From positions 1-64,000 of IMG/VR virus record IMGVR_UViG_3300044641_010328: DNA of 64,000 nt; one strand, written 5' to 3'. Made by a program: the position numbers and the translations under genes. The notes beneath the pieces were generated by a model. It did no database searches, was not told where the DNA came from, and was given only the letters and a program-made list of their open reading frames with translations. Source of the DNA: a virus. Positions 23,603 to 60,282 of this stretch are shown piece after piece. Every line of letters begins with the position of its first letter. Position 1 is the stretch's first letter.

Positions 23603-24067
23603 TCAAGTGGTGATCTGAATGATCTCGTACTGCGTGGTGCCCCTGGGGATGACCAGATCGACCACGTCGCCTGGTACTGCACCAAGCAGCGATTCGCCCA
23701 GTGGCGATGTAATGCTGACGCATCCGATACTAATGTCAGCCTCCGGCTCACCAACCAGCGTCACCCAGCGCTGCTTCTCAGAGCTGCAATCCTCGATTAG
23801 AACCTTGCTGCCAAATCCCACGCGATCTGTGGGCGGAGGCTCATCATTGATCTCATAGTTCTCAAGGACTTCAGCCAGCTCAGAGATTCGCCGCTCCACC
23901 ATCCTGCACTGCTCCTGTGCATGCAGGTATGATTCATTCTCCTCGAGTCGGCCTTCCTCGCGAGCGCTAACGACCTCAGCTTGCGCTGCCATCAGGTCTC
24001 GCGTCTGCATCTTTAGCAGGCGCTCCTGCAGGCGAGTCGCTCCAGCCGGTGTGAGCAGGTTGTGCAT
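23603..24067 (-). CDS. greA: Transcription elongation factor GreA
   Basis: AREEGRLEENESY, VGFGS.V, ISI..TSPLG..LLG; first catalytic Asp appears replaced (GRL.EN). Confidence 0.88.
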   Translation of the reverse strand: MHNLLTPAGATRLQERLLKMQTRDLMAAQAEVVSAREEGRLEENESYLHAQEQCRMVERRISELAEVLENYEINDEPPPTDRVGFGSKVLIEDCSSEKQRWVTLVGEPEADISIGCVSITSPLGESLLGAVPGDVVDLVIPRGTTQYEIIQITT

Positions 24068-24553: not shown

Positions 24554-24850
24554 CTAACTATTGCGAGACTTCGATCGCTCCAGCAGGAGGTCGTAGACAC
24601 CGGACTGGAATCGAGGATCAGACGCGATACGACGCAGATCATCATTGGTTGCGCTCACACCGTAAGCCTCGCAGACGCCAGTTGCGACCTTGTCAAGCGC
24701 CGAGACGAGCACATTGCGTGCGGTGGATAGATTCATCTTGTGACCGTCTTCAGTCATCTTCTCAGCGATATCCTTGTATCCAAGGCCTCCGCTGAACTCC
24801 GTGAAAACCGAGTAACCGTGCTGCGACTTGTGTCCCTTGGGCTTTGCCAT
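24554..24850 (-). CDS. Stand-alone sigma region-4.2-like HTH protein
   Basis: LGYKDIAEKM...MNLSTARNVLVSALDK; coupled to the sigma stop with its own GGAGGT RBS. Confidence 0.65.
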   Translation of the reverse strand: MAKPKGHKSQHGYSVFTEFSGGLGYKDIAEKMTEDGHKMNLSTARNVLVSALDKVATGVCEAYGVSATNDDLRRIASDPRFQSGVYDLLLERSKSRNS

Positions 24851-25593
24851 CACTCACCTCCAACGAAAAGACGATTCTCAAACTTGCTATCATCCTGCAC
24901 ATCAGCGACGCCGAACCGCAGGCGTAGCACCTGCTCCTCTCGAGAGGTCAGTCGGTCGAGGCACTTGCTGATCGCCTGCATCACCTTCTGCCGATCAATC
25001 GCATCATCAGGAGGGGCAGCCTCCTCATCCGCGATCGTCTCGATCACCTTCTTGCCGTCGGCGTCGCCAATCATCTGGTCGAGCGAGACTGTGGAGCGGA
25101 CGCTGCTGCTGCTAAGCACATCCTTGACGGTGTCCACCGAGATGCACATCATCGCTGCGATCTCCTCGTGAGAGGGTCGAGTTCCGAACTTCGCATCGTA
25201 CTCCTCGACGAAGACCGAGATGTGCCAGGCGAGAGCCGTCATGTGCGCAGGAACCCGGATGTCGGAGGCGGTGTCGGTCACGTGGCGGCGGACAGCCTGC
25301 TTGATCCACCAGGATGCATAGGTCGAGAACTTGAATCCGCGGCGCCAGTCGAATCGGTCCACTGCCTTGATGAGTCCGATGTTGGACTCCTGGATCAGGT
25401 CCTCGAGGCTGCAGCCAGAGCGCTGGTGGCGCTTTGCGATCGAGACAGCGAGCCGAAGATTTGCCTCAATCATCTGGTCTCGAGCGCGCTTGTCACCGGC
25501 CTCGATCCGCTGTGAGAGAGTCACCTCCTCCTCGCGGGTTAGAAGACGGCCCTTGGAAAGATGGTTGAAGTAGGAATTCATTGAGTCAGCCAC
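24850..25593 (-). CDS. Sigma-70 family factor (RpoD/RpoS-like) ending after region 4.1
   Basis: [67 protein letters not shown] then stop. Confidence 0.92.
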
Positions 25594-25612
25594 GTTGTCT
25601 CCTTGTATAAAG

Positions 25613-25641
25613 ATTATAACACAGGTCTCGATACACGCACG
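25613..25641 (-). promoter_or_regulatory. Promoter GTGCGT-N16-TATAAT upstream of the sigma gene
   Basis: Same spacing as the other class members. Confidence 0.6.
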
Positions 25642-25667
25642 CGTGGTCGCCACGATGGGCGACCACG
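25642..25667 (-). terminator. Stem-loop after hsp20
   Basis: CGTGGTCGCC/GGCGACCACG. Confidence 0.6.
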
Positions 25668-25673
25668 ACATGT

Positions 25674-26922: not shown

Positions 26923-28527
26923 CTATGTATTCGGCTGTCCAGCATCGTCCTCGACGATTGAGCATCCCGCGGTAAGCATCATTCCTGCAGCTGAGGCTGC
27001 ATTTCGAAGCGCGCAGCGCACAACTCGAGCCGGATCGATGATTCCCATCTCAAGCATGTCTCCGTACTGCTCAGCATAGGCGTTATATCCGAGACGATCG
27101 CTGCCTTCTAGCACACGTGCCAGGACAATATCAGGGACGCCTCCGCTATTCGCAACGATCTGACGAAGAGGCATGCAGCAAGCGGTCCTGACAACATGCC
27201 GCCCAGCTGCCTCGGATCCCGTCAGGCTTCCGGATGAGAGCTTGACAGAGGCTCGAGATAGAGCGACGCCGCCGCCGGGGACGATGCCCTCTTTCAGGGC
27301 TGCCTGAGTTGCATGTAGCGCGTCGTCAACTCGATCTCGGCGCTCCCTTAGCTCTGCCTCAGTCGCACCGCCGACTCGGAGGACAGCAACACCGCCAGAA
27401 AGGAGAGCAAGCCTGCGCCGGCAGTGCTCGCGCTCATCAAGATCCGATGTCTCCTCAGCACGAGACCTGATCTCTGCCACCCTGTCTGCAAAAGTCTCAG
27501 TGTTGCCCTTTGCACCGACAAGTATCGTTTCGCCCTTGCTGATTGTGGCGCGTGTGCAAGATCCCAGGGAATCAAGCGAAACGCTGCCGAGCGACTGGAT
27601 ATCAGCGCTGTGGAAGACTGATGTGCCAAGCAGGCTTGCAAGGTCCTGCGCAAAATCATATCTGCTCTCACCCAGGCCGGGCAGCCTGATCGCGCAGACA
27701 TTGAGGATGCCCTTCAGCTTGTTGACAACGAGGCCCTGGAGTGCCTCTCCGTCGACATCCTCACAAATGAGAAGCAGCGCTCGCTTGGCAGCGAGGATCC
27801 GCTCGAGGAAAGGTGCAAGATCTCGCAAGGTATCAAGGCGCGCATTTAGGACGAGAACAACAGGCTTGTCAAGCTCGCACACCATCTTGTCCTGATTGGT
27901 GACAAAGTAGGGCGACAGGTAGCCTCTGTCAAGGCGTGCACCGGAGACCACACTGAGAGAGCTGTTGAATCCCTTTGCCTCCTCGACTGTGACAACACCG
28001 TCCTGCCCAACAGTCTCAATCGCGGATGCAATCAGTTGCCCAAGATCCGACTCGCCGTTCGCGGAAACTGTGGCAACCCTGAGCAGATCGTCCTTGCCGT
28101 TGACAGGAGAGGAGAGCCTGCTGACCTCCTCGAGCGCAATCTCAACAGCAGCATCGATCCCCTTCTTCAGGTCAGATGCAGAGTATCCTGCTGCAAGCAT
28201 CTTGAGACCCTCAGCATAGATCGCCTGCGTGAGGACTGTTGCTGTCGTTGTGCCGTCACCCGCCTCCTCAGCAGTGCGAGAGGCGGCCTCCTTGATCATC
28301 TGCGCACCAAGGTTCGCAACCTTGTCAGACAGGTTGATCGCGCGCGCGACAGTGACTCCGTCCTTTGTTAGAATCGGATGCTGTCCTTTCTGCTCAATGA
28401 TGACATTTCTGCCACGCGGGCCCATCGTCACCTTGACTGCATCAGCAAGGACGTTGACGCCCTTCAGCAACCTGTCTCGAGTATCAGCATCGAAAATTAC
28501 GAGCTTGTCTGTCTCTTCGCCGATCAT
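26923..28527 (-). CDS. groEL: Chaperonin GroEL
   Basis: VTMGPRGRNV, TKDGVTVA, AGDGTTTATVL, GIVPGGG, GIIDP; no GGM tail. Confidence 0.97.
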   Translation of the reverse strand: MIGEETDKLVIFDADTRDRLLKGVNVLADAVKVTMGPRGRNVIIEQKGQHPILTKDGVTVARAINLSDKVANLGAQMIKEAASRTAEEAGDGTTTATVLTQAIYAEGLKMLAAGYSASDLKKGIDAAVEIALEEVSRLSSPVNGKDDLLRVATVSANGESDLGQLIASAIETVGQDGVVTVEEAKGFNSSLSVVSGARLDRGYLSPYFVTNQDKMVCELDKPVVLVLNARLDTLRDLAPFLERILAAKRALLLICEDVDGEALQGLVVNKLKGILNVCAIRLPGLGESRYDFAQDLASLLGTSVFHSADIQSLGSVSLDSLGSCTRATISKGETILVGAKGNTETFADRVAEIRSRAEETSDLDEREHCRRRLALLSGGVAVLRVGGATEAELRERRDRVDDALHATQAALKEGIVPGGGVALSRASVKLSSGSLTGSEAAGRHVVRTACCMPLRQIVANSGGVPDIVLARVLEGSDRLGYNAYAEQYGDMLEMGIIDPARVVRCALRNAASAAGMMLTAGCSIVEDDAGQPNT

Positions 28528-28738: not shown

Positions 28739-29539
28739 CTAGTAAATAACCTCAAATGTTTGAGCAAACTTCGGCCATGCAGTGTCATTGATGACCGAGA
28801 AGAATCGCATGTCAAGAAAGCGAGACCTCAGAGCGCTCAGATCCTTGACCGGCTCCTTGAACTCGATCTCAGGCATGCTCACGATCTTGAAGCGAATGAG
28901 CTCAAGGTTGCGCGCATAGTCAGCACGATTTGTTCCCTCGTTCAGAAAGCTCTCGAGCTTGTCGGGATTTGCGAGCATCTTCTCTGCTGCCTTATCTGTC
29001 ATCTTTCCAACTGGAGGAACATTATCTGTCTTATCGCCTCGCAGCGCCTTCCAGGCGACGTAGTCGTAGGTGACACCTTCCGTGTATGTCTTCTTGATGG
29101 GATTGAAGAGCTTAACATTGGGCAGCGCTAGAAGCTGGATGAAGTCAGTATCTGTGGAGACAACGAAGCACTCATCGTCAGCGTGCGCATGGACAAGCGA
29201 TGCGATGGTGTCATCACATTCCATGTCTGGGTGCTTGGCAAGGGTGATCGGCACGTGCTGGAGCATATCAATGATGATGCGCTTCTGCCGACGAAACTCT
29301 GCCATCTCGTCCCACTTTGGAGTTCCGGGCTCAATCTGCCGGTTTGCCTTGTATTCACCGTCAAGCTGCTGACGATGGATTGGCACGCCTTCCAGCACAA
29401 GATAGATCTTGTCGGGTGAGAGCTCCTCAATCAAGGGTCGAAGGCTCCGAAAGAAGGTGTAGATGATTCCATTCTCACCCTTTGCACCGAATCGAGAGCG
29501 ATGCATCAGGTTGTAGCCGTCAAGGAGCGCGATTCGCAT
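28739..29539 (-). CDS. 5'-3' exonuclease / flap endonuclease (T4 RNase H-like)
   Basis: LLDGYNL, YKANR, ECDD.IA, STDTDF.Q, LRGDKTDNV. Confidence 0.92.
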   Translation of the reverse strand: MRIALLDGYNLMHRSRFGAKGENGIIYTFFRSLRPLIEELSPDKIYLVLEGVPIHRQQLDGEYKANRQIEPGTPKWDEMAEFRRQKRIIIDMLQHVPITLAKHPDMECDDTIASLVHAHADDECFVVSTDTDFIQLLALPNVKLFNPIKKTYTEGVTYDYVAWKALRGDKTDNVPPVGKMTDKAAEKMLANPDKLESFLNEGTNRADYARNLELIRFKIVSMPEIEFKEPVKDLSALRSRFLDMRFFSVINDTAWPKFAQTFEVIY

Positions 29540-36766: not shown

Positions 36767-37315
36767 TTATCCGCCGGCAGTCTTGACTCCTGCGCCTACA
36801 GAGATTGGAACATCGACCATGCGATCCTCTCCCTCAAGTCCAAAATCGTACTGCTGATCAAGGATATCGACCATCTGTTCAACGTAACTCTGCCCATAAT
36901 TTTTCTTCAAAAACTCTGAGGCTCTTGATACAACGACCTCTTCGACCTGCAGAAGCGTTCTTGAATTCATCACAAGTCTTGCAATCTTTTTGGTGAACAT
37001 GTCGATGTCTAGAGGAGGCTTCTCAACCACAGGCTCCTTTGGTGCTTCCTTTGGAGTCTCGCTTCCTGTTGCCGGAGGTGCGCTCTCTTCACCTGCACCC
37101 TCTTCATCCTGCTCAAGGAGGAATCGAAGAGACAGATTGTTGAGAGACTCAAACATCTCTTCTTTTTCTTCTCCCGCATCAATTGATTCCTTCTCGTACC
37201 TGATTATGAGGGCATCTATCTGATCATCAACAGAGTCGGGTGCAGGATCAACCTCCTGCATCATTCCTTCGACTGGTGAGTCAAGATCATCCTGCTCATG
37301 TATGCGACTTCTCAT
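36767..37315 (-). CDS. Acidic hypothetical late protein
   Basis: 182 aa; LRFLLEQ. Confidence 0.7.
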   Translation of the reverse strand: MRSRIHEQDDLDSPVEGMMQEVDPAPDSVDDQIDALIIRYEKESIDAGEEKEEMFESLNNLSLRFLLEQDEEGAGEESAPPATGSETPKEAPKEPVVEKPPLDIDMFTKKIARLVMNSRTLLQVEEVVVSRASEFLKKNYGQSYVEQMVDILDQQYDFGLEGEDRMVDVPISVGAGVKTAGG

Positions 37316-38010
37316 GGTGCTGTCCCCTTGAGAGCAAGTGCGATCTTCTCAGCTCTCTTTATTCTGTCCTCGATGACGCCCCAGTTGAGCTCCTTCATCA
37401 TGGCATAAGTGTATGTCTTAACATCTGAGACATAATCCCTGTAATAGGCGTGTTGCCAGACATCCATGACAATGATGGGAATACAACCAACCGGAACACT
37501 TTGGCTGTGCAGATCGATGAAAGTGTTCATGTAGGTCTGCGTAAAGATGTTGAAATATGTGACTGCCCAACCGCAGCGTGCCGCAAGGCAGCATGCAATA
37601 AAATCAGTCTGCCACTTATCAAAGTCTCCAAAATCACGAGATAGCCTCATGTAGGAGAGCGTGTCCATGGAGATGTTGCTGGTAAGATCGCTGATGTTTG
37701 AGAAGTAAAGCTCGTGTAGGTAGACGCCATTCATGTTGTACGTCTCATCCTGCTTGAGAGATCTGAAAGCAGATCCGTTTGATTTGACATCTCCTCTATC
37801 GACTGTATCAAGCTCTGCGCTTATTCGATTGAAGGCCTCAAGATATCCCAGATATAGACCATTATGTGCCTTTTTTGTGGCAGCGCTCTGGAACTCTGTT
37901 GGCAGATTAAATGTCTTCTGCTGTGCAACCAGCGCCTCGTTGAGATTTTCCCTCTCTCCGAGGTGAAGAGACTCTGCAATAACCTTGCTAATATCTGCGT
38001 TTTTGATCAT
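37312..38010 (-). CDS. sod: Fe/Mn superoxide dismutase with N-terminal extension
   Basis: AH..LY.GY, NGVYLHELYF, DFG.F..W, GWA, MDVWQHAYY.DY. Confidence 0.88.
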   Translation of the reverse strand: MIKNADISKVIAESLHLGERENLNEALVAQQKTFNLPTEFQSAATKKAHNGLYLGYLEAFNRISAELDTVDRGDVKSNGSAFRSLKQDETYNMNGVYLHELYFSNISDLTSNISMDTLSYMRLSRDFGDFDKWQTDFIACCLAARCGWAVTYFNIFTQTYMNTFIDLHSQSVPVGCIPIIVMDVWQHAYYRDYVSDVKTYTYAMMKELNWGVIEDRIKRAEKIALALKGTAP

Positions 38011-46871: not shown

Positions 46872-47306
46872 TTATTCGATGTGTCCGTAGTAGGGCTCGA
46901 AGAGGGGCTTCCCTTCTGCAATGGATCGCTGGAGATAGTCGCGCAGATCCTCATAGGAGGTTGTAACCTTAACGCCAGATTGAGCTAGCATCAAATTGAA
47001 GTTGCCTGTGAGACCCTGCGCAAAGTAGACAATTGGAACGCCAGCGTTGTATGCCACACCTGCCTCAAAAATTGTGCCCATGTCCTTATCGCGCGTGTTG
47101 CAGAGAACAAAGTCAGCTGTTCGAATGTGATCAACATTTCCTTTGAATGTGTCCTTCTGAACCTGGAGAGAAGCTGTTGGGGGACAGATAAAGATCTTGC
47201 GCGGCGATGCAACATCAAGACCAAGATCTCCTAGCAAATTTTCCAGAGCCTCGACTTCCTCGAGCGCCTTAGGTGTGAACCAGCCAGATGCGAGATATAC
47301 CTTCAT
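46872..47306 (-). CDS. Nucleoside 2-deoxyribosyltransferase / nucleotide N-glycosidase family
   Basis: VYLASGWF, D.GT.FEAG.A, FNLML. Confidence 0.85.
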   Translation of the reverse strand: MKVYLASGWFTPKALEEVEALENLLGDLGLDVASPRKIFICPPTASLQVQKDTFKGNVDHIRTADFVLCNTRDKDMGTIFEAGVAYNAGVPIVYFAQGLTGNFNLMLAQSGVKVTTSYEDLRDYLQRSIAEGKPLFEPYYGHIE

Positions 47307-47347
47307 TTTGAACCTCACATAAACAATAGTGGCGCACATCGTTGTTT

Positions 47348-54414: not shown

Positions 54415-55332
54415 CTATCGAAGATTATCGATGATTTTGGTCAAGTTTTCAACTAGAATCACGCCTTCTTGCCGCTGGAGTGATTTATTGTAAGGCTGAA
54501 TTGGGCTAAATGTCCGAAGTCCATGAGAGGCAAACTCTGCTGCATGCTTTGGCGAGTCATCTACACAGAAGGCAACGTGTCCTGCAAACTTTGACTGGAT
54601 GATCCAGAGGAACTTCTCTCCGCTGAAGGCTACATCATCAAAGTAGAGACCCGAGCTGTGAAGCCATCGTGCTGTGTCAAAGAGGCAGAGAGGATTGTCT
54701 GCAGGGCGTGCTGTCAGGATCTGGACCCAATACCCAAGTCGCTGTAGCTCATGCGTGAATTCGGCTGCATCACTGACAGCCGGAATGTCGCGAAGCTTGC
54801 GCTCTGCTATGAACTCCTTGAAGAGGCGCTCTGTGTTATGCCCTAGATCTTGAGCAGCTGATGCAGCATAGTACTCTGGACAGTCATACGAAATCACTGC
54901 TCCCTTCGTCTCAGCAAGCCACTCAAAGAACGAGCGTCTGAACTCTGCAAGCACATCATCCATGTCAAGGATTGCTACTGGACGACCATCCCAAGACTTC
55001 TTAGACAGGTTATGCCTGAAGTGAAGGTAAGCATCCTTGTCCTCGAAGGCATCAACAAGCTCTTTCTCATTGATGTCCCAGACATTCATGATTGCCATCA
55101 GATATCTGATCACATCAATGCTCTCATACAAGATCTTTGTCCGGTCTGGCATCTTGCGATCCATTCGGTGATCTTTGAAATTGATTGATGATACAAGATC
55201 TGAGATCTCAGAATGCAATTCAAGAGCAAATGATTTTGTCATCTGCTCTTTCTCTACGTCTGTGAATGTCTTGCTATCGAAGAAAAGATTAGAGAATGCA
55301 CGCTGACGATGCAGCATCTCTTTTAGGGTCAC
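54415..55332 (-). CDS. All-alpha dNTPase domain fused to HAD 5'-nucleotidase
   Basis: LHSEISDL...FKDH...YESIDVIRY; DMDDVL, LTARP, VDDSP. Confidence 0.8.
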   Translation of the reverse strand: MTLKEMLHRQRAFSNLFFDSKTFTDVEKEQMTKSFALELHSEISDLVSSINFKDHRMDRKMPDRTKILYESIDVIRYLMAIMNVWDINEKELVDAFEDKDAYLHFRHNLSKKSWDGRPVAILDMDDVLAEFRRSFFEWLAETKGAVISYDCPEYYAASAAQDLGHNTERLFKEFIAERKLRDIPAVSDAAEFTHELQRLGYWVQILTARPADNPLCLFDTARWLHSSGLYFDDVAFSGEKFLWIIQSKFAGHVAFCVDDSPKHAAEFASHGLRTFSPIQPYNKSLQRQEGVILVENLTKIIDNLR

Positions 55333-55341
55333 GTTAGTCCT

Positions 55342-55713
55342 CTAGTATTTACTCTTAATCCTATCGTGAATGATCCTATCTTTATTAACGTACGCCTCAA
55401 AAAGCTCATCAGGCGTAACTCCCATAATAATCAGAAGAGAGAGGAAGTAGTTAAAAGAGTCAACCATCTCCTCCTTGAATGCGGCTCGATCAAAATCGCG
55501 AATCTCTGTCTGTCGATGAGACTTTGCGTTCTTTAGCTCTTGCACTGCCTCAAAGACCTCTTCGACACCACGAAGTGCAAGATCTCTGAGATGTTGCTGT
55601 GTAGCCTTGTTTGTCAGATCGACAGGCATCTCTGGATAGACATCTGGGACCTGCTTCTGCAAGGCTGTCATGAAGTCCTTGCGAAGTTCAAACATTTGAT
55701 CGAGCTTGTCCAA
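55342..55713 (-). CDS. Dimeric dUTPase/dCTPase-like protein
   Basis: VEEVFEA....KN.K.H...KEEMVD...Y...Y..K..I...R. Confidence 0.8.
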   Translation of the reverse strand: MDKLDQMFELRKDFMTALQKQVPDVYPEMPVDLTNKATQQHLRDLALRGVEEVFEAVQELKNAKSHRQTEIRDFDRAAFKEEMVDSFNYFLSLLIIMGVTPDELFEAYVNKDRIIHDRIKSKY

Positions 55714-55714
55714 T

Positions 55715-55954
55715 TTAGTCCTCTAGAGACTCAGGTGGAGACATTGCGGCAATTGCAGCAATCATTCGGTTAAGGCTCTCATCAAATTTGCTGAGATAGG
55801 CGGGATCAGGAGAAAGCTGCTCTCGCTCATCGACAACCAGGCGAATCGTCCTGAGGTTGTCAACGATGTCAGTGCCTGATAGAATCGCGATCTGAAGAAG
55901 TCGTGCAATCTGTGAGATTGTGTCATCTGATAGTCCATAAGTCGTTGTTGCCAT
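55715..55954 (-). CDS. Hypothetical protein
   Basis: 79 aa ORF with AAGGA RBS. Confidence 0.7.
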   Translation of the reverse strand: MATTTYGLSDDTISQIARLLQIAILSGTDIVDNLRTIRLVVDEREQLSPDPAYLSKFDESLNRMIAAIAAMSPPESLED

Positions 55955-55963
55955 TTGTTTTCC

Positions 55964-56767
55964 TTATTTCTGAATTTCTGGGATCCAAAAGGTAGTCCGT
56001 CCGTCCTTCGTCGTCTCTCTCTTTACCTCTCTACCTTCTGGATCCTTGGGCTGATTGTAGACTGCAAAGCGGCGACTGTAATCTCCCTTTTGTCCATCAA
56101 AACCTGAAAATGTGTAGATGGTGGCGCCACCAGTCTCATATGACTTCCTAATAACATTCTTAATCACAGAATTGAGTGTTTTCAACTCATCTTCAGATAA
56201 GGTGTTAGTTTCTCTATGGGGACTGAGTCTGCTAAAATACAAGCATTCAGACTTTAGATAGTTTCCTACTCCGCTAATTACAGACTGATCCATAAGAACT
56301 TCTGCTAGCGTTCTATTCTTCTTCTTAATAGATCTAATAAAGACAGCGTCTGATACATCTTCAGCAAGCATATCTGGACCTAAAGTCTTCAGCTTCGCTG
56401 CCAGCGAATCTTTTTTGTCAATTAGTTTTAATGTGCCGAAGTTTCTCATATCATTGAAGTAGATCTCTCCTCCGTCGTCCAAATCAAACTGAATCCTGCT
56501 GTGCTTTCTCTCAACAGCTGACCAGCTTCCAGTCATTCCTAAAGTGTTGAAAATATGCATCCCATTGTCAAGACTGATGTAGATGAATTTTCCCTTACAG
56601 CCAACTTCAGAAACTTTGACATTCAGAAAATGATTCAGACTTTCCCATCCTTCAGGATTCTTCTTTGTGTAGCGTCCTGATAGAATTCTCATATCAGAAA
56701 TCTTCTTGTTCAAGATTCTTTCACGAATCCCGTCAGATACAACTTTTACCTCTGGGCCCTCTGGCAC
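55964..56767 (-). CDS. mutM: Fpg/Nei DNA glycosylase (zincless finger)
   Basis: PEGPEV, KGKF, LGMTG, D.RNFG, LMDQ..ISGVGNY, GRTT.W without Cys. Confidence 0.92.
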   Translation of the reverse strand: MPEGPEVKVVSDGIRERILNKKISDMRILSGRYTKKNPEGWESLNHFLNVKVSEVGCKGKFIYISLDNGMHIFNTLGMTGSWSAVERKHSRIQFDLDDGGEIYFNDMRNFGTLKLIDKKDSLAAKLKTLGPDMLAEDVSDAVFIRSIKKKNRTLAEVLMDQSVISGVGNYLKSECLYFSRLSPHRETNTLSEDELKTLNSVIKNVIRKSYETGGATIYTFSGFDGQKGDYSRRFAVYNQPKDPEGREVKRETTKDGRTTFWIPEIQK

Positions 56768-56781
56768 GTAACCTCCTAATT

Positions 56782-57204
56782 TTATTGACTATTTACCCAT
56801 CGCCAGTAATTCTTCAGCGCACCGTCCTTGGGCTCTGGAATCTTTGACCACGCATGATTACAGAAGATCTTGTATGCTGCAGCAGCGTAATCTCCGATCC
56901 CATACAGATCTTTCGGATCTCTCTTATCCCACGTCAGATAGTCCTGTGACATCTTGACAAGAGTCTTGCTTCTCCGATCTCCGAGACCAAGATCCTTGAT
57001 TAGATCTCTGACTTCTTCAGTGCTTGCATTCGCAGCGTCCTTTGCAGTTGGCCACCGATCAAAGAACTGCCACATAAGTGGTTCAGCTTCGACACGCTTT
57101 GTCAGATTGCAGAAAATACAAACAACAAAAACACGCCAAGGATCATCCTGGACGTGTTCTTGAATGAGGTTGTAGGGTGAACGCGGTGCGTGCATACCAT
57201 ACAA
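56782..57204 (-). CDS. MBD4-like HhH mismatch (T:G/U:G) DNA glycosylase
   Basis: PRSPYNLIQE....DPW......N.T, LGL...R...L.KMS.DY, LYGIGDY....Y.IFC, P.D..L..Y..W. Confidence 0.85.
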   Translation of the reverse strand: MYGMHAPRSPYNLIQEHVQDDPWRVFVVCIFCNLTKRVEAEPLMWQFFDRWPTAKDAANASTEEVRDLIKDLGLGDRRSKTLVKMSQDYLTWDKRDPKDLYGIGDYAAAAYKIFCNHAWSKIPEPKDGALKNYWRWVNSQ

Positions 57205-57818: not shown

Positions 57819-58451
57819 TCAATAGCCAAATGCTTCAATTGTGTCTCGGAATGGGTTTCCTGGAATTTCTTTGACCTGACTTAGCATGTCCTCTGCAAGC
57901 CAGCAAATCTCTCTCTGTGCATCTGGCTTCAATCGAAGCCCAAGAAAATGCGAGAATGATCGCCAGTTGAACATAACGTCCATTGTGATCTGATTTCCAT
58001 ATGGAAGGTAGAAACGTGCAGATTCCTTTGCTCGCTTCCTGCTCATTCCGCCATCAACAAGGCGCCTGAGTGTGTCATGATATCGCATGATTGCGTCTTC
58101 CATGAAGGCAATGTACCGAGACTGCTCTTCCAGGGGCCAATCTTTGGGAAGATAGTACTTGTCATCCTTCAGCTCCTTGTACCTCGCTGACTCAGCATTG
58201 ATTGAGACGCCAATTCTATGCTTTAGTAGCTGAATGTGCGTTGCACAGTCGACAGTTGCGAGAAAGTGCAAAGAGCTTTTCTCAAATGGCGTCTCGTGAC
58301 CATTTTCAGCCAGCATCCTTAGAAGCGCCGGAATTCTTTCATGCTTTTCAGGTGTAAGATCTCGGCTTGTGCTTGTCCACGCTGATAGCGCATGAACATC
58401 ATCGCCGCCGTACCACCCGACTAGCTCAACCTTGTTTTCTTGAAATGACAC
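57819..58451 (-). CDS. thyX: Flavin-dependent thymidylate synthase (canonical)
   Basis: GHETPFE, QLLKHRIGVSINAESARY, ESAR..LP, NWRSF.HFL.LR...AQ.EI. Confidence 0.92.
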   Translation of the reverse strand: MSFQENKVELVGWYGGDDVHALSAWTSTSRDLTPEKHERIPALLRMLAENGHETPFEKSSLHFLATVDCATHIQLLKHRIGVSINAESARYKELKDDKYYLPKDWPLEEQSRYIAFMEDAIMRYHDTLRRLVDGGMSRKRAKESARFYLPYGNQITMDVMFNWRSFSHFLGLRLKPDAQREICWLAEDMLSQVKEIPGNPFRDTIEAFGY

Positions 58452-58656
58452 TTCTAATCCTCTCTCTAATGTTTTTATCCCAGATTAGCTCAAAGATCCA
58501 TTGCAAAAACGTGAGTGACAAACCTGACACAAGCACCATGGTTGAAGAAACCAAAATGTCGCCGGTAAACAGATAAGTCACCCATGTTCCAAATAGCATT
58601 GAGAATGCACGCCACACAGCTGTCTTGATGAGGAGCTCAATACTATTTGAATCCAT
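58426..58656 (-). CDS. DUF2061-like membrane protein
   Basis: KT..WR........YLFTG......E..W. Confidence 0.65.
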   Translation of the reverse strand: MDSNSIELLIKTAVWRAFSMLFGTWVTYLFTGDILVSSTMVLVSGLSLTFLQWIFELIWDKNIRERIRSVISRKQG

Positions 58657-59672
58657 CAAGATGCTTCCAGGAGCAGCCTTGTCACTGTGTAAGGATCCAT
58701 GTTGGCACATGGACGTCTATCTTCGAAATATCCGCATCCTGCCTTTGAAACGTGAAGCGGGATTCTAATAGAAGCACCTCGATCGGAAACACCGCACCTA
58801 AATTCCTTGTAAGAGCATGTCTCGTGTTGTCCTGTTAGGCGCTGCTCAATTCCGTGGCCATAATACGGAATATAGTCGTCATGCAATCGCCGGAGTATGC
58901 TTAGAATTCGATCGATCTCTGCCATTCCTCCTTCCTCATCGCGCGTTGCGGCTGTTGACCAGTTTGTGTGAGCGCCTGCTCCATTGAGCTCGCGAACAGG
59001 CTTTGGATCTAGCTTGGCATTTATTCCGTAGTCCTCTCCTATCCGGTAGAGGAGCCACCTTGCAAGCCACAGATGGTCAGACACGACAACGGGATCACCT
59101 GTTCCAATCTGGAACTCCCATTGACCAGGCATAACCTCAGCATTGACACCGCAAATCATGAGCTCAGCATCCATGCAGGCTTTCATGTGCGCCTCTACGA
59201 GATCTCTTCCGCACACCTCGTCAGCGCCTACACCGCAGTAGTAGGGCCCCTGCTGTGGTGGGTAACCTCCCGTAGGCCATCCTAGTGGAGTTCCACCTCT
59301 AAAAAGTGTATACTCCTGTTCAATTCCGCATAATGGAATCTTTGATCCCTTTCGCTCCATTAGCCTGACCAGGTGATGTCGTGTGTTAGTTCGATGGGGA
59401 GTTCCGTCTGCATTGTAGACTTCACACAGAACTAGAATTGCAGGCCTTTCCTTTGATCGAATTGGATCCTTACAGAATGAGACAGGAAATAGAATGCAAT
59501 CACTCTTGTCACCGGGAGCCTGTCCTGTCGATGATCCATCAAATGTCCACTGTGGAACATCAGATATTGATAGCTTTTCTCCTGAAAATGGAAAAATCTT
59601 GGTCTTGCTTCTTAGCTTGGACGTGGGTGTAGTCCCGTCTATCCAGATGTACTCTGCGATTATGTTTACCAT
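58656..59672 (-). CDS. glnII: Glutamine synthetase type II
   Basis: AEYIWIDG, W.FDGSSTGQA, EQEY, QGPYYCGVG, NAEVMPGQWEFQ, NGAGAHTN, RLTG.HET, EDRRP. Confidence 0.95.
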   Translation of the reverse strand: MVNIIAEYIWIDGTTPTSKLRSKTKIFPFSGEKLSISDVPQWTFDGSSTGQAPGDKSDCILFPVSFCKDPIRSKERPAILVLCEVYNADGTPHRTNTRHHLVRLMERKGSKIPLCGIEQEYTLFRGGTPLGWPTGGYPPQQGPYYCGVGADEVCGRDLVEAHMKACMDAELMICGVNAEVMPGQWEFQIGTGDPVVVSDHLWLARWLLYRIGEDYGINAKLDPKPVRELNGAGAHTNWSTAATRDEEGGMAEIDRILSILRRLHDDYIPYYGHGIEQRLTGQHETCSYKEFRCGVSDRGASIRIPLHVSKAGCGYFEDRRPCANMDPYTVTRLLLEAS

Positions 59673-59679
59673 TTTTCAC

Positions 59680-60282
59680 CTATTCAAACTTGTACTTCAC
59701 ATCAACATTGATCTTCATGTCTGGAAGTCGAACATGATTTGCTAGACCGTGACTTAGCGCTTCATTTGCATCAAGATACCAGTCAGCATGGCTCTTTTCA
59801 TGAATAATGTTGAGGAAATATTCGGGCTCCTTTCCGCAGTTGGCTGCCATCATTCGATATACTTTCTGATTTAGGCGCTCTGCCTCCTTTGAGTCAGCCT
59901 TGATATCCTCAATCTTTCCAATGGCGCCAGATGAAACATCGTGAATCATGATGGTGGCATCGGGATCCATAAACCTATATCCCTGTGTCCCAAAGGAAAA
60001 CAGGATAGCGCCACAGCTCATTGCCTTGCCTTCAACAATTGTTGCAACAGCTGTCCGGGACGACTTGATATTCCCAATCATTGACATGAGAGAATAGACC
60101 TGGCCGCCATAAGAATCAATGATGATTGGAATGACAGGCTGACCTGTTGACTGTGCCAAGGACATCTGCTGTGCAAATTCCTTGGCGGAGTCTTCATCGA
60201 ACTTATTGACCCGAATTACAACAGGGCTGGATCGAAGCTCAATTTCCTTGACGAGGGGAGACACACACGTGATTATGTTCAT
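59680..60282 (-). CDS. ClpP-like protease subunit
   Basis: IDSYGG.V, G.AMSCG, IMIH, DWYL.A.EAL..GL. Confidence 0.88.
   Translation of the reverse strand: MNIITCVSPLVKEIELRSSPVVIRVNKFDEDSAKEFAQQMSLAQSTGQPVIPIIIDSYGGQVYSLMSMIGNIKSSRTAVATIVEGKAMSCGAILFSFGTQGYRFMDPDATIMIHDVSSGAIGKIEDIKADSKEAERLNQKVYRMMAANCGKEPEYFLNIIHEKSHADWYLDANEALSHGLANHVRLPDMKINVDVKYKFE

Follow-up and report, generated by a model that had tools for sequence, protein, structure and literature searches.

The viral DNA analysed here, called the window below, comprises the first 64 kb of a 90,978-bp IMG/VR virus record (IMGVR_UViG_3300044641_010328), for which CheckV estimates a completeness of 27%. On its minus strand, the window carries an open reading frame (ORF, positions 56782-57204) whose product is predicted to be a DNA glycosylase of the MBD4 type, reduced to the catalytic domain alone. 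MBD4 is regarded as a eukaryotic enzyme tied to CpG methylation. The gene stands in a block with the order ClpP, glutamine synthetase, ThyX, an 85-residue ORF, the MBD4-like gene, a Nei/Fpg-family glycosylase, a 79-residue ORF, a MazG-like gene, a fusion of MazG-like and NT5C (HAD) domains, a ThyX-like gene and a 363-residue ORF (Table 1). Read from its TTG codon, the ORF encodes 140 residues. Close homologues begin at the fourth codon of the ORF (MHAPRSPY...), so translation probably starts from the ATG at 57195 and yields 137 residues. Counts of promoter and terminator signals around the gene were no higher than those in shuffled sequences.

Among Pfam families, the ORF matches the generic HhH-GPD family alone, and no PHROG match to it was found. 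In a phmmer search of all Protein Data Bank (PDB) sequences, 15 distinct MBD4 glycosylase-domain sequences match residues 6-138 with E-values of 7e-33 to 1e-31. The first matches other than MBD4 are MutY (E = 3e-3) and then MIG (1kea, E = 0.02), and MBD4 domains score 116 bits, whereas MutY and MIG score no more than 20 bits. The NCBIfam models for mutY and nth give sub-threshold scores of 25-27 bits, with cut-offs above 200. The AlphaFold2 model, built from 18 homologues, has a pLDDT of 93.8 and a pTM of 0.89. When this model is searched with Foldseek, 16 MBD4 structures lead (among them 6vjw, 4e9g and 4ew0, with TM-scores of 0.93-0.95 at 0.9 Å), with TM-scores of 0.91-0.95, root-mean-square deviations of 0.9-1.1 Å and sequence identities of about 40%, and the next fold is MIG, with a TM-score of 0.64. 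An earlier note on this DNA had proposed an MBD4-like enzyme and had named best matches to Nth or MutY as a sign against it; the search came out otherwise, with MBD4 first by a wide margin.

Structural comparison with the eukaryotic MBD4 (MED1) domain (residues ~426-580 in human; 6vjw, 4e9g, 4dk9, 1ngn and 4ew0) suggests the same compact HhH-GPD fold free of an iron-sulfur cluster, with a TM-score of 0.95 and a deviation of 0.9 Å. About 40% of the residues are identical over 136 of the 140 positions, and the equivalents of human Leu506, Leu508 and Arg512 are shared. The phage protein is a compact all-helical domain of ~140 residues that stops 13 residues past the catalytic aspartate, and it therefore lacks the cysteine-rich iron-sulfur cluster loop. 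MIG (Mth TDG), Nth and MutY belong to the same superfamily, and MIG also removes T and U opposite G, but these enzymes carry such a loop at the C-terminus. Unlike eukaryotic MBD4, the protein has no methyl-CpG-binding domain (MBD) or linker: the 137-140 residues are all catalytic domain and the upstream gene is the unrelated 85-residue ORF, although no search was made for longer, fused forms. Judged from sequence and model, the ORF encodes a true MBD4-type glycosylase in the form of a stand-alone catalytic domain.

The thymine-reading glutamine and tyrosine and the catalytic aspartate are kept, as the earlier note had read from the translation. In the phmmer alignment, Gln15, Tyr106 and Asp127 correspond to human Gln449, Tyr540 and Asp560, and Leu72 is the equivalent of human Leu506. 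These four residues are invariant in 18 stand-alone homologues. Across 212 family rows, the tyrosine is invariant and the glutamine and aspartate nearly so (aspartate in 209 of 212), and neither the glutamine nor the tyrosine varies in the viral clades. Residues 447-449 and 560-562 make up the pocket of human MBD4 together with Leu466, Gly471 and Tyr540; Gln449 contacts N3 and O2, the Q449A mutant is inactive, and Asp560 is catalytic (PMC3479182). Arg468 occupies the gap of the flipped base, and the orphan guanine is recognised by the backbone carbonyls of Arg468 and Leu506 (PMC3479182). In mouse MBD4, Tyr514 stands where OGG1 has its lyase lysine, and the Y514F mutation nearly abolishes activity (PMC3458566). 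The MBD4 motifs quoted in the earlier note are present, in slightly different form (PRSPYNLIQE, DPW, LYGIGDY, YKIFC and PKDGALKNYWRW). Its statement that the protein matches MBD4 along its length holds for residues 6-138, but the equivalents of Arg468, Leu466, Gly471, His561 and Lys562 are replaced.

The genome is that of a large bacteriophage and not of a eukaryotic virus, as it carries a DnaE-type polymerase, a sigma-70 factor, GroEL, an 11-gene tRNA cluster and further genes with PHROG matches, and the Nei/Fpg gene has an AGGAGG ribosome-binding site. The enzyme is thus encoded by a phage, as had been supposed.

The Nei/Fpg gene lies only 14 nt downstream of the MBD4-like gene, in line with the adjacency noted earlier, and starts with GTG behind its own ribosome-binding site. 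Its product begins with MPEGPEV, which contains the PEGPE motif with the Pro-Glu dyad, and both the H2TH and the C-terminal finger domains are matched, as in Fpg/Nei enzymes; the TIGR00577 score (196 bits) is slightly below the cut-off. Its best PDB matches, full length at E = 3e-44, are 3a45, 3a42, 3vk7 and 4nrw, which we take to be structures of mimivirus Nei with a zincless finger; on that assumption, neither glycosylase of the operon has its nearest characterised relatives among bacteria. A UV-dimer glycosylase, which the earlier note had placed elsewhere in the window, could not be recovered: when all six frames of the entire 91-kb record were searched with PF03013, the family of pyrimidine-dimer glycosylases of the T4 endonuclease V type, no match reached E <= 0.01.

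Table 1 Features of the window discussed in the text.
Feature	Coordinates	Strand	Evidence or remark
GreA	23603-24067	-	
Sigma-70 factor	24850-25671	-	
GroEL	26923-28527	-	
5'-3' exonuclease	28739-29539		
Superoxide dismutase C-terminal domain protein	37312-38010	-	
Kinase/thymidylate-synthase-like ORF, 290 residues	41165-42037	-	directly downstream of dnaE, whose stop it overlaps by 4 nt
Nucleoside 2-deoxyribosyltransferase-family protein	46872-47339	-	Pfam 4e-13
Divergent ThyX-family protein, 316 residues	53455-54405	-	Pfam Thy1 71 bits
All-alpha NTP pyrophosphohydrolase-like N-terminus fused to NT5C/HAD 5'-deoxynucleotidase-like C-terminus	54415-55332	-	Pfam NT5C 25.3 bits, dUTPase_2 weak
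All-alpha (MazG / dimeric dUTPase-like) NTP pyrophosphohydrolase	55342-55713	-	phrog_12184 3.9e-19; Pfam dUTPase_2 and PRA-PH weak
Conserved 79-residue protein of unknown function	55715-55954	-	between Nei and MazG-like gene in all relatives
Fpg/Nei-family bifunctional glycosylase/AP lyase	55964-56767	-	Pfam Fapy_DNA_glyco, H2TH, Fapy_DNA_glyco_C
MBD4-type HhH-GPD DNA glycosylase, stand-alone (predicted)	56782-57204	-	phmmer, AlphaFold2, Foldseek, Pfam HhH-GPD 32.7 bits
Canonical flavin-dependent thymidylate synthase ThyX	57819-58451	-	Pfam Thy1 119 bits; TIGR02170 99.1 bits (cut-off 87.9)
Glutamine synthetase	58656-59672	-	
ClpP	59680-60282	-	

Eight IMG/VR loci share the gene order of the window, with protein identities of 52-96%. 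Two records of 82.6 kb and 236 kb (the latter locus L091) and a 6.4-kb contig of a metagenome-assembled genome (MAG; locus L087) form a more distant marine subclade, whose MBD4-like proteins are 54-60% identical. In this subclade, the 79-residue ORF and the MazG-like gene still follow the MBD4-like gene; L091 also has Nei and the ThyX-like gene, L090 has the MazG-like/NT5C fusion, and L087 ends inside the MazG-like gene. Nei follows the MBD4-like gene directly in six of the eight close relatives; the remaining two have a 0.7-kb insert between these genes, and in L091 Nei lies within ~0.7 kb of the MBD4-like gene. The 79-residue protein has no Pfam, PHROG or NCBIfam match, and was found by tblastn in L002, L005, L006, L008, L009, L087, L090 and L091. 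The MazG-like gene is kept next to the glycosylase genes in the relatives, and the fusion gene (PHROGs 415, 420, 173 and 2643) is kept in L002, L005, L006, L008, L009 and L090. Since it is kept in eight close and three distant viral loci, the linkage of the MBD4-like gene to the Nei, MazG-like and ThyX-like genes is old and maintained.

The ThyX-like protein is the best conserved product of the cluster: it is 89-94% identical in five close relatives (L002, L006, L008 and L009 among them) and 57% identical in L091, with the other proteins of the same relatives at 54-66%. It is also 46% identical to the sole Thy1-family protein of Geobacillus phage GR1. The GR1 gene sits near genes for a glycosyltransferase and a nucleoside 2-deoxyribosyltransferase, and a protein of the latter family is also encoded in the window. 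The ThyX-like protein reaches 46.8 bits against TIGR02170 and fails the cut-off of 87.9. The RHR motif and the counterparts of Arg147 and Arg174 of Thermotoga maritima ThyX are retained in it, and the region of S88/R90/Y91 reads C-T-G-D-R-W. The canonical ThyX of the window aligns to the T. maritima enzyme with the GHETPFE, HR...S.RY and LR motifs. The two ThyX-family proteins show no BLASTP similarity to each other, and their hhalign alignment is weak, though in register (E = 1.3e-3).

The family is widespread among viruses. A HMMER scan of 1.84 billion cluster representatives returned 950 matches at E <= 1e-10. After three phage-like representatives, the best matches are long proteins of 40-46% identity with the domain at the C-terminus, and the named ones come from animals and plants (centipede, molluscs, shrimps, thrips and Saponaria). 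A single query recovered at least 117 viral loci in IMG/VR. Among cultured phages, only distant members (~30% identity) were found: the Xp12 group, Stenotrophomonas phage AXL1, Janthinobacterium phage Donnerlittchen and cyanophage S-TIM54. S-TIM54 belongs to a second, larger viral clade (loci L010-L081, with L024 in a 353-kb, 98%-complete record), in which the positions of Arg468, Gly471 and Lys562 are occupied by Gln, Arg and Glu, respectively. The glycosylase gene of this clade lies in a conserved block that also codes for GTP cyclohydrolase I, a phosphoribosyltransferase, a HIT protein and a 5'-3' exonuclease, along with several proteins of unknown function.

Cellular prokaryote genomes almost entirely lack the family. 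Pattern scans across the genomes of 185,579 prokaryote species turned up five loci, one of the window clade and four of the S-TIM54-type clade, all on uncultured marine contigs from MAGs or single-amplified genomes. These contigs (L087 and L092-L095) are labelled as archaeon ARS54, Neomarinimicrobiota (a 335-kb contig), Methanobacteriota and Candidatus Actinomarina. L087 looks like mis-binned phage DNA, because it carries the phage-type block of MBD4-like, 79-residue and MazG-like genes. In a profile search, another 400 genomes belonging to the phylum of one of the five loci yielded no match at E <= 1e-20.

Among viral structure models in BFVD, the sole structural match is U5KBB0 of the insect baculovirus Clostera anastomosis granulovirus A, a 245-residue HhH-GPD protein with the MBD4 fold (TM-score 0.92, 33% identity), which is probably a separate capture from an animal host. 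In a FastTree phylogeny, the window protein falls in a 20-member clade of stand-alone and viral sequences (support 99), which is distinct both from the eukaryote-type sequences and from the two remaining phage clades. Because the tree lacks a resolved backbone, no direction of transfer can be claimed.

Taken together with the residues and the gene neighbourhood, these observations suggest that the product is a monofunctional MBD4-type glycosylase for G:U and G:T mispairs, possibly also for 5-hydroxymethyluracil (5hmU) opposite G, which acts in a phage base-excision module that repairs deaminated cytosine. We put the probability of this reading at roughly 0.7. The enzyme would bend the duplex and flip out a pyrimidine mispaired with G, namely uracil, thymine or possibly 5hmU, the bases left by deamination of cytosine, 5-methylcytosine (5mC) and 5-hydroxymethylcytosine (5hmC), respectively. 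Gln15 and Tyr106 would read O2 and N3 of this base and the backbone NH of Ile14 would read O4, and Asp127 would cleave the glycosidic bond. As in eukaryotic MBD4, a tyrosine stands at the position of the lyase nucleophile in place of a lysine, and the enzyme is therefore predicted to be monofunctional and to leave an abasic site. The co-transcribed Nei/Fpg enzyme downstream could process this site by its AP-lyase chemistry, and the 5'-3' exonuclease and polymerase of the phage could complete a short-patch repair. Such a module would protect the large phage genome from C-to-T mutation via cytosine deamination. The mouse MBD4 domain removes deamination products from the DNA of phages Xp12 (5mC) and T4gt (5hmC) in every sequence context (bioRxiv 10.1101/2023.03.02.530819). 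Since that domain acts alone and in all contexts, no requirement for CpG sites or for an MBD is expected of the phage enzyme.

Several observations weigh against a simple transfer of MBD4 function to the phage protein, among them the loop that invades the helix. It reads N33-L34-T35-K36-R37 in the phage protein and N467-R468-T469-S470-G471 in human MBD4. The arginine finger of the MBD4 domain is thus missing, with gap-filling Arg468 replaced by Leu34, and Gly471 is replaced by Arg37. The base-stacking residues Leu466 and Lys562 are replaced by Cys32 and Ala129, and His561 by Gly128. In mouse MBD4, the base is sandwiched between Lys536 and Leu440, and the K536A mutation lowers activity 5- to 10-fold (PMC3458566). 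Across the family, all 70 rows of viral clades A and B have Leu or Gln at position 468 and Arg at 471, whereas the long, eukaryote-type rows have Lys or Arg at 468 (107 of 131) and Gly or Ala at 471 (117 of 131). The two changes are correlated across clades. In the alignment, the basic residue is shifted by three positions along the intercalating loop, a family signature of the viral clades, and the gap of the flipped base may be filled either by Leu34 or by the clade-invariant Arg37. An arginine at the 471 position could narrow or re-shape the pocket on the C5 side. Because residues of the loop, of the C5 side and of the base stack have changed, the substrate range may differ from that of MBD4. 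We note that 27% of the phage genome is available, which makes statements on gene absence weak.

A tentative, though possible, elaboration is that the glycosylase serves as the dedicated repair arm of a cytosine-replacement pathway, in a phage whose DNA contains 5mC, 5hmC or otherwise C5-modified cytosine. The modified nucleotide would be made by the linked MazG-like dNTPases, the HAD nucleotidase, and the divergent ThyX and/or the kinase/thymidylate-synthase-like ORF. An MBD4-like enzyme would then exist because T or 5hmU opposite G is invisible to uracil glycosylases. A parallel is found in the classic 5mC phage Xp12, whose DNA carries 5mC in place of cytosine (PMC7653180). Xp12 encodes an MBD4-type protein, with PDB E-values of 5e-14 to MBD4 and 5e-4 to EndoIII. 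Its gene lies immediately upstream of genes for a PRA-PH/MazG-like protein, a thymidylate-synthase homologue of the ThyA family with Asp at the Asn177-equivalent position, dCMP deaminase and DHFR, and Donnerlittchen has the same gene order. The architecture of glycosylase, dNTP pyrophosphatase and thymidylate-synthase-like gene thus resembles that of the window. The maintained linkage described above fits a modification pathway as well, as does the presence of a ThyX-like protein that fails the ThyX equivalog cut-off beside a canonical ThyX.

We note that the MazG-HAD fusion and the 257-residue PRA-PH protein of Xp12 show no significant BLASTP similarity, so that the parallel between these two is one of architecture only. 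The Xp12-type glycosylases (QNN97216.1, and those of AXL1, FMYAK-P1 and Donnerlittchen), annotated as hypothetical, ENDO3c or endonuclease III, are likewise stand-alone phage proteins of the MBD4 type and share with the window protein the Leu at the Arg468 position and neighbours of nucleotide-pool metabolism (MazG-like and thymidylate-synthase-like). However, they are only ~30% identical to it and occupy a separate long branch of the tree. They have Trp at the Gly471 position and keep Lys562, where the window protein has Arg and Ala, and their partner is a ThyA-family enzyme without adjacent Nei, whereas that of the window is of the ThyX family.

The kinase/thymidylate-synthase-like ORF was considered as a second candidate for the modifying enzyme. 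Its N-terminal half contains a P-loop (GxDxSGKS/T), and its C-terminal half contains SRRF, SCISY, CRS...D and AH(I/V) motifs with Asp at the Asn177-equivalent position. These motifs are in register with the Xp12-type thymidylate synthase, weakly (hhalign probability 34%), and the ORF gives a 0.90 feature match to a viral thymidylate-kinase/thymidylate-synthase cluster of the ESM Atlas. On the other hand, its AlphaFold2 model, built from three sequences, has a pLDDT of 48. The ORF has no sequence match in Pfam, NCBIfam or the PDB, and a pattern scan found no relatives.

Other observations also speak against a C5-modified genome. Searches for a C5-methyltransferase (PF00145) or a ThyA-family gene (PF00303) gave no match in the 91-kb record, a 164-kb relative or the 98%-complete 353-kb record of the other viral clade; these absences are weak, as the records searched are 11-49% complete except for that last one. 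The arginines kept in the ThyX-like protein correspond to those that we take to bind and polarise uracil in the T. maritima enzyme, and would fit dUMP rather than dCMP as the substrate. In GR1, where its homologue is the only Thy1-family gene, the enzyme may simply make dTMP. The largest viral clade has GTP cyclohydrolase I and the other genes of its own block beside the glycosylase instead. The dinucleotide odds of the window are near neutral (CpG 0.90, TpG/CpA 1.16), and dinucleotide and palindrome statistics of the window pointed neither to CpG loss driven by methylation nor to avoidance of restriction sites. The earlier note had remarked that T:G repair is most useful where cytosine is methylated or otherwise modified at C5; for this phage, that link is suggestive only.

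A broader form of the same idea, which we regard as unlikely as a whole, is that large phages of a widespread marine and freshwater clade possess an as yet unknown system of DNA base modification, for which the glycosylase would be a marker. A ThyX-family enzyme or the kinase/thymidylate-synthase-like fusion would make a C5-modified pyrimidine nucleotide, aided by the two MazG-like dNTPases and the HAD nucleotidase, and the N-L-T-[KR]-R loop and an enlarged pocket (Cys32, Gly128, Ala129 and Arg37) would be suited to its deaminated form. The eukaryotic MBD4 domain and the phage family would then share a direct ancestor, with no surviving lineage among cellular prokaryotes.

It is rather improbable that the enzyme acts on uracil alone, as a phage substitute for a family-1 uracil-DNA glycosylase (UDG), with the Arg at the Gly471 position closing the space for the thymine methyl group. 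In mouse MBD4, the C-alpha of Gly445 is 4.0 Å from the C5-methyl of thymine (PMC3458566), and the replacement of Gly or Ala by Arg throughout the two viral clades would be in keeping with such a closure. No UDG-family match (PF03167) was found in the 91-kb record, which supports a repair role in general and would suit a uracil-specific enzyme in particular, but this search covered 27% of the genome. In addition, the side chain of the arginine may face the DNA backbone and stand in for the lost Arg468, as the correlated exchange at 468 and 471 suggests, and the adjacent pocket residues are smaller, not larger (L466C and K562A).

We consider it very unlikely that the protein has a role other than repair of phage DNA, such as attack on host DNA, removal of a host-installed base or non-catalytic DNA binding: the remodelled loop and pocket leave room for altered specificity, and anti-host phage glycosylases are conceivable in principle, but the catalytic and pyrimidine-reading residues are all invariant, the gene is set among Nei and nucleotide-pool enzymes and not among nucleases or host-takeover genes, and reading of the orphan guanine through backbone carbonyls of kept residues (Leu72, the equivalent of Leu506) would restrict action to mismatches.

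Base-excision repair of deaminated cytosine by an MBD4-type enzyme thus remains our preferred reading. Catalytic domains without an MBD are also known from plant MBD4L and other eukaryotic MBD4-like proteins, and the closest relatives outside viruses include plant sequences such as HhH-GPD proteins of Saponaria officinalis. Plant MBD4L removes U and T that lie opposite G. Unlike the phage protein, the plant MBD4-like proteins have long N-terminal extensions and the eukaryotic N-[KR]-T-x-G loop.

The phage proteins form a well-supported and broadly distributed viral branch of the MBD4 catalytic domain, which is unnamed in the curated phage and prokaryote libraries (PHROG and NCBIfam), and no published description of a phage MBD4-type glycosylase was found in the open-access literature searched. 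This branch raises the question of the origin of the eukaryotic MBD4 domain, and the viral clades with a relocated arginine finger offer a natural experiment on the intercalation loop. The phage proteins may also provide small and probably robust G:T/G:U glycosylase reagents, for example for removing artefacts of 5mC deamination in sequencing, a purpose for which the mouse domain is already used. The linkage to MazG-like, HAD and ThyX-like genes, together with the Xp12 parallel, may serve as a genomic flag for phages with modified pyrimidines.

Beyond this block, the record encodes a helicase, the large subunit of ribonucleotide reductase, HSP20, an RNase H-like protein, TK, dCMP deaminase, an NAD-dependent epimerase and a DHH phosphoesterase. 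The TpA dinucleotide is strongly under-represented in the window (odds 0.53). The auxiliary set of glutamine synthetase, ClpP, GroEL, superoxide dismutase, sigma-70 factor and GreA is unusually cell-like for a phage.

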